Assembly: GCA_965645245.1 (NCBI GenBank) | Contig: OZ287074.1 | Span: forward strand, 620,001 to 684,000 | Length of the DNA: 64,000 nucleotides | Source of the DNA: Massalongia carnosa | Taxonomy: Eukaryota | Direction of reading: 5' to 3' | Part shown: positions 1,590-64,000 of the stretch, piece by piece | How the letters are laid out: each line of letters starts with the position of its first letter | Position numbering within the stretch: position 1 is the stretch's first letter | Notes under the pieces: generated by a model | The model's input: the letters and a program-made list of their open reading frames with translations, nothing else | Told to the model about the DNA's origin: nothing | The model's database searches: none | Made by a program: the position numbers and the translations under genes

Positions 1590-3419
1590 TCACCGATAAC
1601 CCCGACCTCTCCCTCCTCCCCTCCCTCTGTCAAATCCGCGCGGTGCCCCCCGGCCTCTGCCCCTCCCGTTTCCTCTGCCTCGGCCACTTCCCCAGCCTCC
1701 TCCACCTCCACCACCACCAGCCCCTCCTTCCTCCTGCTTCGGCCCAATCCTCATCCTTTCTTCCCTCTCTTCCTCGCTGGCATGGAACTTGTTTTCGATC
1801 CCCAAAAGCGTGCAGAACGCCTCTGTTTGCGGATTCGTGTATTCGTGCGGCTGCTCCCTCGAGTTGACGCCTTCTGCAGGATCATGGACTGGTGCTGTGA
1901 GTTCGAAGTTCTCGGGGATAGTTAGCAGCCCTGGGTTGACAATGTTTTCTTGCACCCATTGCTCCTCGGCAGCGATCAGGGGCGCGTAGTGCGCTTGGCC
2001 TTTGTTGGGTGGAACGGTGGCGGTTGGAGCGCCGAGAGTGAGGTCGTTGGCGAAGACGCGGGTTATGGCTAGCCATTCTTTGTCGTACGACAGCTTCGAG
2101 GGTTGCTCGGTGGTGGCACTGGATGGGGATAGAGGGTTTAAAGGGTCTATCTCGAGGATTTGGAGGAATTGGCGGTGGGGAAGACATTTGTCAAGAGCGA
2201 GGAAGCGGGTGTTACGGTTGGTGATTGCTTCCGGGTGGGGAGCAGAGCTGGAAGAATGCGAAGAGCGAGTGAAAGGAGGGGCAAACGAGGCTGGTAGCTG
2301 GGCGCGAAGGGCGGCAGAAATGGCCAATGGTGCGGCGGCTTGATGGGAAAGAATTTGTGGGGTTCTTGTGGGTGCTGCCGGTTGGGGAGCACGGGAGTTT
2401 GAAGTGTCATCATCCATGTCAAGATCAATTTCGTCCTTGTTTCGAGCAGGCAACGGGATTCCCAATAATGTGGTGTCGTCAAGCTCAAGATCAATCTCAT
2501 CGGCGTTCGCTTTACCGCCTAGATTTTCAGGGGTTTCAAGCTTAGGGTTTTGTCCACGCTCTTCCTGGGCCGGTGCCTCCGGTCCTTCCCCATGATTTAC
2601 CACGGCGGCAAACTTGCAGTGCAAATGTGCAGCAAACCAATATGGTGGTCGAAGCCGATCCATCACATACTTCGCCGCAGAGCTGCCCAAGGTTCCAGCT
2701 CGGGCATCAGCCTCGAAAAGATCCTTCTTAGCGAACAAAACCTTCCAGTTACCCATCCACTCGATGCCTCTGGGCCAGTCGTGGCTGATGCCAACATCGA
2801 CTTGAGTTCTGATTTGAAGAAACTTCCTCACGTCTAGTTCTCTGACATGATAGACGCTTTTCACATCGCTCTGGCTGTAAGGGAGGCGCTCATGATGGGG
2901 TTTGTTGTAATTATAACCCTTCCAGATTCCAGATAGTCCAGCTATTCGAAGAGACCCGATGCGAACTACATTTGCAGCCCCCAAGTAGTAAATTCTGGGG
3001 GCTACCCATCCCCCATAGTAGAGTTCCCATAAATGATTACTCGCTTCATGGTTTCCACCGACAAAAATAGTCAAGTAGGGAGCTTCTCGCACTCCACTAT
3101 AGTATTCATGAAAGTCGCCTATCTCACGATACTTTTGAGGTACTGACATGCAGTTTAAGTCTTTGGAGTTGCGGACTGCCTAAAAATGTTAATAACAAGG
3201 AACCAAACAAGTATTAAAAGGAGATAATATTTTATTACCTGAAAGTCGCCACCGATGATCAAAAGATCAATGCCAGGCCAGTTCTGAATCTCGCATGACC
3301 TTTTGATAGAGGCATATATTGCATGAAGGGTCCCATGTCCCTAAGATTTTGTTTTTAGAAAGTGTGTAGTTATCAGGAAGTAAAGCAAGACTCACGCATC
3401 CTTCGATAGCAATTCGCAT
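1590..3419 (-). CDS. DBR1: RNA lariat debranching enzyme (metallophosphoesterase), 3 exons, RGG-rich C-terminal tail
   Basis: Exon 1 (3419-3396) MRIAIEGC; exon 2 GHGTLHAIY...IGGDFQ; exon 3 AVRN...GGNHEASN...SHDWP...AHLHCKF...FLALDKCLP. GT-AG introns at about 3395-3341 and 3238-3180. Confidence 0.95.
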
Positions 3420-3563
3420 TTTCCCTTTTCCTTAGCAAAGCCTTTCATGAAAGTATTGACTTATGAAAATCAGAAGATCTTGGGCGTCTGAGAGGACGAA
3501 GTGAAATAGAGATGAACAGCCTTTACTATAGAAGTGTCTAAGAAAAGTGTAAGAACAGCTAGA

Positions 3564-3573
3564 CACGTGATAA
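3564..3573. promoter_or_regulatory. CACGTG E-box (RTCACGTG, Cbf1/bHLH-type) in the short divergent DBR1 / Rpr2-Snm1 promoter
   Basis: gacacgtgat (reverse ATCACGTGT) midway in a ~295-bp divergent intergenic gap; function inferred only. Confidence 0.35.
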
Positions 3574-3713
3574 ATAAAGCCCTCAAGTGCTCTAGGCATA
3601 GGTTTTATTTCGACACTGTTATTCTAGTATTTCGACTAAAGTTAATCGGAACCTGCTTTATGCCCTCACTACCGAAAACCACGTTCATCAAGCCCATCAA
3701 CTAAGGGAATGAG

Positions 3714-58112: not shown

Positions 58113-59527
58113 GTCGACTTTGTTGCACTTCCATCGTGCCTTTCATCCCTGCCAAAATTTCTCTTCTCAACGATAAAATAATTTCTTTCAATCCTACTAC
58201 TAGCATTGATACTAAAACTCGCTTCTCTTTGATATCTTGGGAACCCACAGGCTCATTGGTCAAATCTTGCACTCATCCGCCAGCCTTGTCCCCTCACCAA
58301 TTTCTCTCTTTCCACGGCAAACATCTCACTCGGCAGGAGAAGCGCGCTGGCCGCCCCCCCCCTCGGTTGGATAGACAAGAATACGTACATACATGTACGA
58401 TCGACGATCCCATCATTTTTTTTCTCATTGCCAAGAAAGCACGATCCATGGCTAGGGGTATTTGCAGTCACCACACGTACGTTCGGAACATCTGTACTTT
58501 GCACAAAAGACTCAATGCATGTGGCTTTTTGCTAGTTATCCTCCACCCCCAACCAGCGAAAAGAAACACGGAATAGGGCGTAGGGTTTTGCAATCAACAG
58601 CCACCAATGCTTACAAAATTGGCGGGTCTGATCAGGCATGCCATCTGTTGTTTCATTTTGCGGTGAAACAACGGCGTACAGGGAAAACGGAGTTTTTTGT
58701 TGAAGCAACCGATGGAACCGATTTTTCCAGTTTTTTTAGATTTCCCCCCTCCCTTCCTATTTGAGCGAATCGAGCGAGCGAGCGAGTCACTTACCCAGCA
58801 AGCGAAGCGAGCGAGCGTGCCATGTTCCCAATCTTGTATCTTTTCCCCCCTTTTCCAGTTTTCCCCTTGTCCCCTGTGTCTTTGTCCTCTGTGCTCTGTT
58901 GTCTATCTCTCTCTCTGATGGGATTACTCTTAATGGTTAGATGATGAAAAAAGCGAGGGGGCCTCTTTCCGGAAGTGTGTTGCTAGATACCCTCCTCTCT
59001 CCGATTATTCTCCGCTTCACCTTCCCCTCCCCTCCCCAAAAAACCCTTTATTTTCGCTTTCTTCTCCCCCCTGTGCCCGTTGCTGCTGCGTGGTGGATGG
59101 TGGGTGGGTTGTTGCAGCTAGCAGACAGGTAGGGGAGAAGAAGGGGGGGTTTTTTGTTAGGGGGAAGAGGGGGGGGAAGGAAAGGGGTTGAGAGATTAGT
59201 AATTCTGAATTTAGTTTTTGATCTTTGATGATCTCATTTACTTTTGTAGTGATGATGATGATTGATAGATGGGGGTGTGTGACTGTGTGTTTGCTGGAGC
59301 TATGGTACAAGCCTATGAAAATGCCCTGATCATCATCTCCCGACCCAGTGAATAGATAGGGAACTCTATCATCATCCCTTTCCAACATCACCCACGGCAC
59401 CGATGTACCAGCCTTATCTATTTATCTCCTCCCTCCTCCCTCCTCCCTCCTCCCAGGTTCTCTCCCCAGACGCAATTCCAAACACCGATCCATCCCTCCC
59501 TCCCTCCCTCCCTCCCTCCCAACAACC

Positions 59528-60732
59528 TCATTTCCCCTGGTTAAATTGCATGCTGTATCCCCCCTTCTCATCCTTCGTCATTTGGAAATTGTCGGTGGAG
59601 AGCCCAAAGGGCTTGAGAATACCATTGCCTAACTGTTTTTGTATTCATGAGCAGAAATTCTCGAATCTCCCCATGTAGGTGCTCGCATGGGAATTGGGTA
59701 AAAAGAAAAAAAGATGAAATGGCGGTGAGCAATGGGAATGTGAATTGACTGAAGAAGGGAGGGAACTCACTTCTTTCAGCTTACCCATCATATCTCCCAT
59801 TTCCTTTTCCTTGGCAGCGGCAATTTGAGCGGGGAGGGTGGCGAGGGCTTTATGCACGATCTTGCGATCGGCGGGCGGGAGGGCGGGAAGTTGGGAAAGA
59901 TTTTGGTAATCTAGCACGGTAGCAGTTAGGAACACGTTCATTCTACCGTCTGTATACACTGATTCACGCCACGAAAGGGGAGAAGTGAGAGGAAATAGAT
60001 TGTCTTACCTCCCTCCGCGCCTTGCAGATTACCCCAACCGCCCAGTTCGGATTTCGCCTTCGCCCGCCTCATCAGCGCCTTGGCACGGATCCGAAGGATG
60101 TCGTCCCGCCGCTGATCGCTCATCTTTAGCCTTGCCAGCTCCTGCTCTGCTTCCTCGCCATCCCCTACGATTTCCACCACCGCCCCGTCAGCGTCACCAT
60201 CCTGATCAGCATTCTTTCCTCCCTCCTCCTTGGCAAGTTGGTTGGATCCGGCTTTTTTTGGCGGGGGAAGTAGGCGGTCCAGCGCGTCCAAAGCGGTGGT
60301 AGCGCTGTCGACGGCGGCCTTCCAGTCCTCGAGCTTAAGATGGCAGGCCGCAATGTTGCTTTTTAGCACGGCGACTTCGAAGTCGAGGTAGTTAGGGCAT
60401 GAGGCGAGGGCGGTGTCATATTGCCCGATGGCTTGCGAGTATTGGGCACTGCTGAAGAGCCGGTTCGCTTCTGATTTTTGTGCATTTGATTCGGATAGGA
60501 GGGTCTAATGGAGGTTGAGAGAAGGGAGATGGTTTAGTCAAGGTTTCGTGGTGCTTCGAATCGATATGTTTGTGTAGAGGGAAGGAAGAGGGAAAATTTG
60601 GCATCTGCTCACCGCTTCTTCTTCGGCGTTGAAGTGGACGGGGGGGCGCGTATCGTTGATTTGTGGAGGTGATGTCGCTGGGGACGGGGATTCCGTGAGA
60701 CGAGGATCGATGGGGATATGATTTGAAGACAT
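59528..60732 (-). CDS. Tetratricopeptide repeat protein 1 (TTC1-like), 4 exons
   Basis: [82 protein letters not shown]. Confidence 0.88.
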
Positions 60733-60996
60733 TATCACATTGGGGTTAAGATGGGGGAGAAGGGGGAAAGATGGATCGGGGGCTATTTCGTAGCGAGCAG
60801 AGCAGGAACGTGTGCAGCCTTCTTGCAGGTTAATGTGCAGTCCATGGAAACACCTGCCGTTGTGGATAATGTGTGTTCTAGAGGCGTAGATGCGTGGAGA
60901 CTATGTCCATACAGAGTATAGACGATTGAGAGGAGCAGAGGGAGATGGGTTCGATGAGCCCATTTGCTTAAGCGATAGCCGCGGCTAACTACTTGC

Positions 60997-62283
60997 CACG
61001 CGCGTGACAAAAATGGCCGAACACCAAAATTTAGCCGAAATTTCTTTGATTGTACAATCACATTAAACCCCCAATATGGAGCCCAATTTAGAGCTACGAT
61101 TGACTGAAAAACAGCCGCATACTACTCCTACTAAGGCTAAGGTTCAGGGAGCCATTGAATATGCACAGGCGAAAGGAATTTTGCATAGCAAACAGGACGT
61201 TTTCGATTTTTTCGGAGTGGGAAGAACTCAGGGTTATGCAATGCTGAACGACATCAGCACCAATCGTCGTTTACATAATTCTTACATAGCAGAGCCTCGA
61301 GGTCGACCTTATAAGCTGCTTAAAGAGCTTATTGATCGTATGCTTGAAATTTGGAGACATGGGGCTTGGAGGGACGATCGATGACCTGGACTCAATTGGC
61401 TGCAGCTGCGGAGGCTCCCGTCGTTTCATGGCGTACGATTCAACGAGCTCTGAAAGAACGAAACTATCATAAATGCACTGCTTGCACGAAGACCTTCTTG
61501 CCAGAAAATCTGATGAAAACACGAAGAGATTGGGCTTGGGAGAAAAGACACACCTGGTCTTTGAATGATTGGAAAAAGGTACGATTTTCTGACGAGGTTC
61601 ACTTCGGGCGAGGTTCACTTCGGGCGAGGTCCACAACGAAACCTTCAAATCATTCGAAAGCCTGGTCAACGTACGTGTGAGGACTGCATTCAAGAACAAC
61701 GTCAGCCAGAAGAGAAGGATAAAAAGCAGAAACGATATCATTGTTGGACCGCGGTGGGCTGGAATTTCAAGTCGCAGTTGATATTTTATGAGGTTCCCAG
61801 CAATTCGAATGGAAAGATGAGTCAACGAGTGTATATTGACTCCATTCTGGAGCCGGTTGTCAAATCATGGATGGAAGGTCATGAATTCGTATTGGAAGAG
61901 GATGGAGACTCCGGGCATGGTTCAGGAAAGGATAATATCGTACGACGATGGAAGGGGGCAAATGGGCTACGATATTACTTCAATTGTCCTCATTCTCCTG
62001 ATCTTTCTCCCATCGAGAATTGTTGGCAGGTTCCAAAACAAACGGTTGGACGTCAACCTCATTGGGATGATGATACCACAATTGCTGCAATTAAGGAGGG
62101 TTGGGCCAAACTTTCTCAGGCAAAAATCAATCAACGGATCGATTCAATGCCCAAAAGAATTGATGACGTGTTAGACATGCAGGGTAAGCTTACTGGATGG
62201 TAAAATAGCTGTAGTTGTGGATGTAAATGTAAATCCAACAAATCGCTAAATTTTGGTGTTCGGCCATTTTTGTCACGCGCGTG
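60997..62283 (+). mobile_element. 1287-bp IS630/Tc1/mariner-type DNA transposon with perfect 39-bp TIRs and a 5-bp flanking direct repeat (CTTGC)
   Basis: CACGCGCGTGACAAAAATGGCCGAACACCAAAATTTAGC at 60997-61035 and its exact reverse complement at 62245-62283; CTTGC at 60992-60996 and 62284-62288. Confidence 0.95.
61076..62203 (+). pseudogene. DD37E transposase (~370 aa reconstructed) with two frameshifts
   Basis: RGRP, WKKVRFSDEVHF, EEDGDSGH...SPDLSPIE (37 residues between D and E); 1-nt loss near 61350 and a 16-bp tandem duplication at 61593-61624. Confidence 0.92.
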
Positions 62284-63150
62284 CTTGCTTCCGCTTCTGT
62301 TCTCCTTTTCTCCCCTTCCCCCTCCCCCCTTTCACCTTCGCCCTTCTTCACGCACGAACCCCCCGGCGTTTTGACTTGCTGAAAAGGTACTTTGATTATC
62401 CAATTTCCACCACATCTTCCCCCTACCTTACTGTATCTCATCCCATTTGCCCACCGTGCAAATATCGTGTTACACATCACATCACATCGAACAGACCCCA
62501 GGTACACATATCTAAGTTATCTAACCATTTACTATGCTTGGAGGCGCATCGCTGAAGATCAAGATCCAGCCACATGATTCACGATACGTCAATGGATCGA
62601 ATCGTGAAAACCACCAACCAGAAGACCATAACCAAAACCAAGACCAAGACCAAAATAAAAACAAAGCCTGTGCTCTTCCACGCTCTGACACATCAATTGT
62701 GGACACTAATGCAGCATTCCATGAAATTCCCCGAGACTATAAGATGATCGATAATAGTTCAGATCCATGGCTCTCATCCCTCCCTCTTCTCGTTTTTTGT
62801 TGTCGTGACTATAGATGCTATTTATCTGGAATCGGAAGCCACTGTGCGCGATTCTCGAATAATATCAATCTGTGCGCCAAAGCTTGGTTTTGGAATATTC
62901 ACATAACTCAAACTTTTCTTCTCATATGCGCGGGTCATGCTCCTAGGCATGTTTCATATTTGAAGTCTCCATGGTGGAAAATTTTACCAATTACCTACAC
63001 CTGAAGAATCTATAAAAGACCAAGTTTCCCTCATGTCCTGGAGCAACGTCCGCTGGGTTGAACATACGACCGTTCATTGAACCTTTGCCACTCCACTCCC
63101 CTCCACTCTCCTAAAACACCCGTGCACTCTCCTCCTTTTGCGATCTGACG

Positions 63151-64000
63151 ATGACAGCACGTAGAACCAAGTAAGTGCGGGCCAATTGCGCGGCATTCCA
63201 CGAATCTCGTCCCGGCAGATAGAAGCTAACCCGGGACTCCTCAAGCTTTCCCAACGTCCGGGCCTGTCTCTTCGACATGGACGGCCTACTTATCGACTCC
63301 GAGGATATCTACACGCACTGCAACAACATCATCCTCCACCAATATGGCAGGCCTTCTCTTCCCTGGAAAGTCAAAGCTCAACTCCAAGGCCGGCCCGGCC
63401 CCGAAGTAAGCGTCCCCTTCCCTCAATACATAGCCTTCCCAAAGTAACCCTCTCTCCCTAGGCTGGCGAAATCTTCCACGCCTGGGCCCAACTCCCACTC
63501 TCCCGCGCGGATTTCCTTAGCCGCCAAGCCGCGCTCCAGCGAAAAAACTTCCCCACTACCCAGCCCCTCCCCGGTGTGCTCTCCCTCTTATCCCACCTCG
63601 CCGCGGCCAACATCCGTCTGGCCCTCGCCACCTCGTCGCACGCGGCCAACTTCCGCCTGAAATCCGGCCATCTGCCTTCCCTCTTTAGCTTCTTCCCCCC
63701 GCACAACCGCGTACTCGGCGACGACCCGCGCATCCCGCCCGGCAAGGGTAAGCCCGCGCCCGACATCTACCTACTCGCGCTCGAGACGCTCAACGCCGAG
63801 ATCCGCGCCCACGGCGGCGGCGAGCGCGAGATCGCCCCGGAGGAATGCATCGTGTTTGAGGACTCGGTGTCTGGGGTCGAGGCCGGGAGGAGAGCAGGCA
63901 TGCGCGTGGTGTGGTGCCCGCATCCGGAGCTATTGAAGGAGTATGCGGGCCGCGAGCGGGAGGTGTTGGCCGGTTTGACAGGGAAGTTGCAGGACGAGGC
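63151..64000 (+). CDS. HAD-superfamily hydrolase (HDHD1/GS1, pseudouridine-5'-phosphatase-like); 3' end lies outside the window
   Basis: MTARRTN|FPNVRACLFDMDGLLIDSED, LATSS, GKGKPAPDIYL, ECIVFEDSVSGVEAGRRAGM; two introns. Confidence 0.9.

Follow-up and report, generated by a model that had tools for sequence, protein, structure and literature searches.

Does a transposon with a Tc1-type transposase have to duplicate TA when it inserts? The question is raised by a 1,287-bp element in the Massalongia carnosa assembly GCA_965645245.1. The element lies on contig OZ287074.1, within a stretch of 64,000 nucleotides (forward-strand positions 620,001 to 684,000) that we refer to as the window and from whose first letter all coordinates below are counted. 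Canonical members of the IS630/Tc1/mariner (ITm) superfamily cut their target 2 bp apart at TA. Surveys of the superfamily treat TA as the rule (PMC7325037, PMC2817418). The window element is flanked by two copies of CTTGC and has TA at neither end. We consider it highly probable that it is a cut-and-paste DNA transposon of a large ascomycete family whose Tc1-like DD37E transposase produces 5-bp duplications rather than TA.

The element spans 60997-62283 between the two CTTGC copies (60992-60996 and 62284-62288), each of which abuts a terminal inverted repeat (TIR). An inverted-repeat search of the window returned TIR arms of 39 nt each (60997-61035 and 62245-62283), which are 100% complementary and both start with CACGCGCGTG. 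The perfect 39-bp TIRs, the absence of TA and the abutting CTTGC repeat, all described in the first-pass annotation, were thus found again in the window. A 29-nt TIR pattern, searched with up to three mismatches, matched only the two arms in the 64-kb window, where no match is expected by chance, and in an alignment the left TIR falls into register with 21 related elements at their ends. The element is organised as follows.

60992..60996, no strand: left copy of the target-site duplication, CTTGC, identical to 62284-62288 and abutting the left end.
60997..61035, + strand: left TIR, 39 nt, starting with CACGCGCGTGACAAAAA; one arm of the inverted-repeat pair, 100% complementary to the other.
61076..61384, + strand: transposase piece 1 (open reading frame), the N-terminal 102 aa with the first helix-turn-helix region; the frame is lost near 61350.
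61351..61680, + strand: transposase piece 2 (open reading frame, Pfam), which contains HTH_Tnp_Tc3_2 as the second helix-turn-helix and, within FSDE, the first catalytic Asp (codon 61591-61593).
61587..61634, + strand: three 16-bp tandem units (direct-repeat family), of which one is surplus and causes the second frameshift.
61565..62203, + strand: transposase piece 3 (open reading frame, Pfam, alignment to Sleeping Beauty SB100X), comprising the DDE_3 catalytic core, in which the second Asp has codon 61901-61903 and the Glu codon 62015-62017, and the stop codon.
62245..62283, - strand: right TIR, 39 nt, the other arm of the inverted-repeat pair.
62284..62288, no strand: right copy of the target-site duplication, CTTGC, abutting the right end.

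The flanks of the element hold no long reading frame and the right one begins with a C/T-rich, low-complexity tract (62289-62350, directly after the right duplication copy), so that the insertion site looks intergenic. Contigs from public read sets, which are described below, break or vary in this tract (loose ends at 62310-62344 in run X5).

What enzyme does such an element encode? A single transposase gene is spread over three reading frames by two frameshifts, the first a 1-nt loss adjoining a T run at 61350 and the second the surplus 16-bp unit within 61587-61634. The Tc1-type motifs and D-37-E spacing proposed in the first-pass annotation are present at defined codons: the catalytic triad comprises codon 61591-61593 for the D in FSDE, codon 61901-61903 for the first of the two D residues in EEDGDSGH and codon 62015-62017 for the E in SPDLSPIE. 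From these coordinates, 37 residues lie between the second D and the E, and the DD34E spacing of the strict Tc1 family is absent. In Pfam searches, piece 3 matched DDE_3 with 34.5 bits (cut-off 28.6), and piece 2 matched HTH_Tnp_Tc3_2 with 29.3 bits, slightly below its cut-off of 31.5. DDE_3 exceeded the cut-off in all five relatives scanned as well. HTH_Tnp_Tc3_2 reached 40.6 bits in one of these relatives (P0005; cut-off 31.5), stayed below threshold in two (P0007 and P0076) and was not found in P0034 or P0002.

The family to which this enzyme belongs is large. A word-indexed search with the 212-aa catalytic piece returned 243 relatives at E ≤ 0.001, and an exhaustive search with the same piece returned 2,609 cluster representatives, including 132 at E ≤ 1e-30. 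Full-length relatives measure about 360-370 aa, and those with a named source belong to Clathrospora, Ophiobolus, Pyrenophora, Macroventuria, Setomelanomma, Rutstroemia, Acephala, Clonostachys and Parathielavia, all of which are ascomycetes. They are annotated as "hypothetical", as "Tc1-like transposase DDE domain" or, wrongly, as "HMG box protein". The last name is attached to P0073 and P0076, in Rutstroemia and Pyrenophora tritici-repentis; because Pfam finds transposase domains only in P0076, these names look like misannotations.

In a sequence search, a profile built from ten relatives matched one solved structure only, the catalytic domain of Sleeping Beauty (5cr4, E = 3.4e-14). In this alignment the SDE, DGDSGH (DxDxxH) and SPDLxPIE motifs pair up, and a 3-residue insertion directly follows the second Asp motif. 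An AlphaFold model of P0007, computed from 56 sequences, had a mean predicted local distance difference test (pLDDT) score of 84.8. Foldseek matched the model, in which two helical bundles precede the core, to the full-length Mos1 transposase (4u7b, E = 4e-13) and to 5cr4 with a target-normalised template modelling (TM) score of 0.74-0.76. Of the 56 aligned rows, 48 have D in the first catalytic column, 50 have D in the second and 53 have E in the third; 37 residues separate the second D from the E in 27 rows, and 38 do so in 17. The enzyme is a Tc1-like member of the ITm superfamily.

This homology also bears on whether the element could come from another superfamily altogether. Transib elements make 5-bp duplications and have ends starting with CAC. 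Both features recur in the present family, so that an origin in Transib, or in another group with 5-bp duplications and CAC...GTG ends, has to be weighed. However, by sequence the protein matches DDE_3, HTH_Tnp_Tc3_2 and Sleeping Beauty, its fold matches both Mos1 and Sleeping Beauty, and the domain, sequence-profile and fold searches gave no RAG1-like or Transib-like match. Because the transposase homology is Tc1-like and the transposases of Transib and RAG-like elements are unrelated to it, this origin is refuted, and we rate its probability as practically nil.

Two further features of the protein family were observed. A Y-x-K-C-x-x-C motif at the end of the second helix-turn-helix (residues 96-102 of P0002) is invariant in all ten aligned full-length relatives and could serve in metal binding or DNA contact. 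The protein P0070 (217 aa) is a second, divergent family member with 54% identity, and the host genome probably contains more than one subfamily of the transposon.

Is the 5-bp duplication a peculiarity of one copy or a rule of the family? A metagenome scan by protein alignment matched 365 stretches, 207 of which encode a relative, and the best 80 were treated as loci. For each locus, a script sought inverted repeats around the gene under a rule of at least 17 matched positions. This left 51 loci that were taken forward together with the window, the other 29 having no usable repeat, mostly with a contig that ended inside or beside the element. The resulting 52 entries comprised 48 distinct flank pairs. 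Because a partly palindromic flank can lengthen an apparent inverted repeat, the comparison tolerated a symmetric shift of the boundary of up to 6 nt.

The ends of the 51 loci are homologous to those of the window element, with CACGCGGGTGnCAAAAAAAnCnGGACnCCAAAA as the in-register consensus and CACGCGGGTGnCAAAAAAA as the end consensus common to relatives, and the related elements are 1,268-1,506 bp long. The 10-bp palindrome with which the first-pass annotation had the TIRs open is real in the window copy and does not extend to relatives, which start with the non-palindromic CACGCGGGTG or CAAGCGG. The palindrome is specific to the window copy or its subfamily, and since it is missing from relatives, we no longer regard it as functionally important.

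An exact 5-nt direct repeat abutted both ends in 22 of the 48 insertions, compared with 61 of 2,256 mismatched left/right flank pairs (2.7%), and none of the 48 carried TA on both sides. When the 22 were curated, one locus (L042) was dropped and two (L006 and L007) were merged as the same site in two assemblies, leaving 20 independent 5-bp sites, the window included. The exact repeat at L042 looks like chance, because the element there would begin with AG and not with CA. At the 20 sites the elements start with CACG, CAAG, CACA or CTCG. Among repeat lengths of 2 to 9, only 5 fits the exact-repeat sites, with 2 fitting as well at a single one. A repeat starting with TA at L053 proved to be an internal repeat, the true right end lying further out. 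The duplicated 5-mers are CCTGC, CTTAT, ACCCC, CGTGG, CCAGC, GCTGG, CCTGG, GTGGT, ACAAG, CCGAG, GCAAG, ACTGG, CCCGG, CCGAC, CTCGC, CCAGG, CCAAG and CTTGC; since they vary between sites, they are not part of the element.

These counts bear out the proposal, made from the window alone, of a fungal ITm lineage that duplicates 5 bp instead of TA. The flanks of other copies, here those of the relatives, showed neither TA pairs nor a constant CTTGC. They also speak to the suspicion that the CTTGC pair is a coincidence beside an ordinary Tc1/mariner insertion that lost its TA or made no duplication. One 5-mer would match by chance in about 1 of 1,024 cases, and the read sets showed no empty site for the window copy, both of which leave room for such an accident. 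However, nineteen more independent related insertions show the exact 5-bp arrangement with different 5-mers, against a control of 2.7%, and TA pairs are absent from all 48, which makes coincidence a very improbable account.

If the family does not seek TA, which sites does it enter? We rebuilt 24 pre-insertion sites, namely the 20 independent sites and four at which the element ends are of unequal length. Within the duplication, C occupies the first base at 16 of 24 sites and the second base at the same number, the third base is A or T at 17, the fourth is G at 15, and the fifth is G at 11 or C at 10. Two places outside the duplication, A or T is found at 22 of 24 sites on the left, where C never occurs, and at 21 of 24 on the right, where G never occurs. 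Single-position binomial p-values range from 3e-6 to 3e-4. Together the sites describe a loose palindrome, W-S-[CCWGG]-S-W, whose centre is the third base of the duplication, as is expected of a two-fold symmetric transposase complex that cuts 5 bp apart. The window site, cta|CTTGC|ttc, is a loose fit.

A palindromic, CCWGG-like target consensus could also mean that the flanking 5-mers are the two halves of a palindromic site cut without a stagger, so that no true duplication exists. A blunt cut within a palindrome would, however, leave inverted flanks, and most of the duplicated 5-mers are non-palindromic direct repeats (CTTAT, ACCCC, GTGGT, ACAAG, CCGAC and CTTGC), which counts against a blunt cut and leaves it scarcely credible.

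In each of two loci, L026 (1683-1715) and L034 (1640-1677), two family elements stand back to back with exactly 5 bp between them, in the order right end of one element, CCTGG, left end of another element with a different sequence. The arrangement suggests that the second element went into the duplicated 5-mer of the first. Here the duplicated 5-mer and the element end together recreate the preferred palindromic site.

How the trait is spread within the family was followed on a maximum-likelihood tree, quickly built from 55 rows of the catalytic domain, in which the window and P0002 form a group with a support of 100. No major clade lacks loci with 5-bp duplications, the Pyrenophora clade of P0076 and the clade with CAAG ends included, so that the sampled family seems to have inherited the duplication from its ancestor. 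A stop-free stretch of at least 170 aa was obtained from 45 of the 80 loci, and several loci with 5-bp duplications therefore lie outside the tree.

Are there other copies in the host, probably a lichen fungus? For the stretch 59500-63800, seven public runs were listed, one of which is labelled a lichen metagenome; five contain at least part of the stretch, and four were compared (X1, X2, X4 and X5). In X1, X2 and X4, words from the element are about 3-5 times as deep as those from its flanks, and because word depth is not a copy number, we call the element multicopy only. Relative to the window, the multicopy contigs have a T added behind 61349, 16 nt removed at 61593, GAA added behind 61873 and about nine substitutions, and contigs with the 16 nt removed at 61593 are present in all four read sets. 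When a script applied the extra T and the 16-nt removal to the window, the frame opened for 371 aa, and the repaired protein is 75% identical to P0002 over 336 aligned positions. The commoner host copies thus have neither frameshift; apparently intact copies exist in the same organism and may be active today. The window element itself is a lightly damaged member of this multicopy family, which is Tc1-type and impala-like.

The read sets also bear on the insertion itself. Contigs of X2 and X4 span one or both junctions (X4 record 18 reaches 61026; X2 record 16 and X4 record 24 begin at 62255), so the insertion is present in these two runs. In X1, the flank contigs end at 60955 and resume at 62319, and a 227-nt contig of single-copy depth matches 60993-61046 and then continues into unlike sequence. 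X1 contains a fraction of 0.70 of the sampled words, which is the share of the stretch outside the element, and its contigs show no empty site. In X5, the left flank contig stops at 60970. X1 and X5 speak neither for a 5-bp duplication nor against it. Joints between 60206 and 61375 (X5, on a 29-nt side) and between 62003 and 62137 (X4) were left unused, as they look like cross-matches between family copies. Contigs of X1 and X2 share the first 33 nt of the element (60997-61029), with loose ends behind 61029, and then run into unrelated sequence; they may be a deletion derivative or a miniature inverted-repeat transposable element (MITE) that uses the same ends.

Which described element comes closest? 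Like the present family, the Fusarium oxysporum element impala and its MITE, mimp, are short elements with short inverted ends and a CA terminus. The element impala is reported as DD37E (PMC7325037), a spacing that it shares with the present family. Its end motif is given as CAGTRRG..GCAAWAA (PMC5579170). The end of one related element (L012, CACGCGGGTGCAATAA) fits this motif at 13 of 16 positions in the same register, and the window end lies further from it. The difference lies in the target: impala and mimp require TA, which follows 150 of 158 end-motif matches (PMC3599309), whereas the present family makes variable 5-bp duplications without TA. By its ends and DD37E spacing, impala appears to be the nearest described element. 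Ten more distant relatives, drawn by cluster, bear only the names "hypothetical" or "Tc1-like", with no link to impala.

Other groups share some of these features. TRT, Mosquito and L18 have DD37E spacing and a Tc1-like transposase, as the present family does. For TRT-like fungal elements, PMC5630946 describes a restriction to Mucoromycotina and long ends, with none detected in Dikarya. Tc1 and Sleeping Beauty resemble the present family in the catalytic domain, homologous by sequence and fold, in a two-part helix-turn-helix N-terminus, in ends starting with CA and in a size of about 1.3-1.6 kb; they differ in having 34 residues between the second Asp and the Glu and a TA duplication, where the present family has 37-38 residues and a 5-bp duplication. 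Some ITm members duplicate 3 bp, namely Tc4 and Tc5 (TNA), the ciliate TBE elements (ANT) and Zator. Their 3-bp targets have a T/A-containing centre, whereas that of the present family is 5 bp long, GC-rich and CCWGG-like; these members show that the wider ITm group has no single spacing of target cuts. Measured against the features of the superfamily, the window element has the DDE core, the two-part helix-turn-helix, and short TIRs around a single gene in about 1.3-2.4 kb, and it departs in the 2-bp TA duplication. Since this hallmark is absent, the family is a deviant ITm lineage and not a typical member.

What, then, speaks against a 5-bp rule? A first group of points concerns the sample. 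All relatives come from metagenome contigs, and the loci were chosen partly by eye: L078 was kept with 12 of 13 matched positions for its clear family-type end, and L050 was dropped despite 18 of 19 for its homopolymer run. Furthermore, 26 of the 48 insertions lack an exact 5-mer at the symmetric boundary. Four of these fit 5 bp too when the ends may differ by 1-3 nt (L013, L025, L038 and L044), three lie at contig ends (L017, L018 and L035), three have decayed outer ends (L008, L022 and L047), two adjoin another element (L034 and L061), and one matches at four of five positions (L020). The remaining 13, together with L042, make 14 unexplained insertions. Many of the unmatched flanks have GG at the end of the left flank and CC at the start of the right one, like the half-sites of the consensus. 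The 14 are likely due to chimeric assembly of multicopy elements. One pair supports such assembly without proving it: L060 and L061 have the same left flank and the same element (2241-3652 in both) and different right flanks, which reflects either chimeric assembly or recombination between copies. The pair calls for caution with duplication counts drawn from metagenome contigs. The right flank of L061 runs into the end of another family element.

A second group concerns the window copy and the enzyme. None of the four read sets has a contig joining 60996 to 62284, the empty site, and the single pre-insertion CTTGC at the window site is inferred. The frameshift at the T run may stem from faulty assembly instead of a true lesion. 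The DD37E residues alone cannot explain a 5-bp stagger, given that impala is reported as DD37E (PMC7325037) and requires TA (PMC3599309). For this reason we dropped the three extra residues as the cause of the stagger.

Even if the 5-bp lineage is real, has it already been described, for instance under curated Repbase entries or through relatives of hupfer, an element from Beauveria bassiana? The first-pass annotation named hupfer as a possible precedent, reported to have an ITm-like transposase and a 5-bp duplication. One named homologue comes from Clonostachys rosea, and Clonostachys and Beauveria belong to the same order. On the other side, hupfer is reportedly a larger element, and a literature search for it returned author-name matches only and no text on the element. 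No described fungal ITm lineage with a 5-bp duplication was found in the literature within reach, which excluded older subscription papers and Repbase. An earlier description is therefore a possibility that we take seriously and still think rather unlikely.

Returning to the family as a Tc1-like lineage with a 5-bp duplication, how might it transpose? In the likely mechanism, a transposase dimer would bind the conserved 30-40-bp ends through its two-part helix-turn-helix and excise the element. The two exposed 3' ends would then attack the target strands 5 bp apart at W-S-[C-C-W-G-G]-S-W, and repair of the gaps would leave a 5-bp duplication of variable sequence. The window copy would have inserted in this way at an intergenic CTTGC and is broken, as assembled, by the 1-nt loss and the extra 16-bp unit. 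The data establish the ends, the duplication, the 5-bp rule across the family, the target preference, the fold and the catalytic motifs, whereas the 5-bp stagger of a dimer and activity today are inferences.

What would this mean for the superfamily? Textbooks treat the TA duplication as a hallmark of Tc1/mariner elements and software uses it as a rule to recognise them, and the present fungal family breaks this rule. Annotation pipelines that require TA may misfile it, and fungal genome annotation may miss or mislabel such elements. We see an even chance that a clade of impala-related Tc1-like transposons, widespread in ascomycetes and so far undescribed, has switched from a 2-bp stagger at TA to a 5-bp stagger at a GC-rich, CCWGG-like palindrome. 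If this is true, impala with its TA and the present family with its 5 bp, near-identical in their ends, would form a natural pair for asking what sets the spacing of cuts in DDE transpososomes. The family would also be a source of integrating vectors that do not depend on TA, and possibly an integrating tool whose target preference points away from AT-rich DNA. Because a Tc1-type enzyme and impala-like ends have been kept while the TA rule has been broken, the superfamily allows the distance between target cuts to shift.

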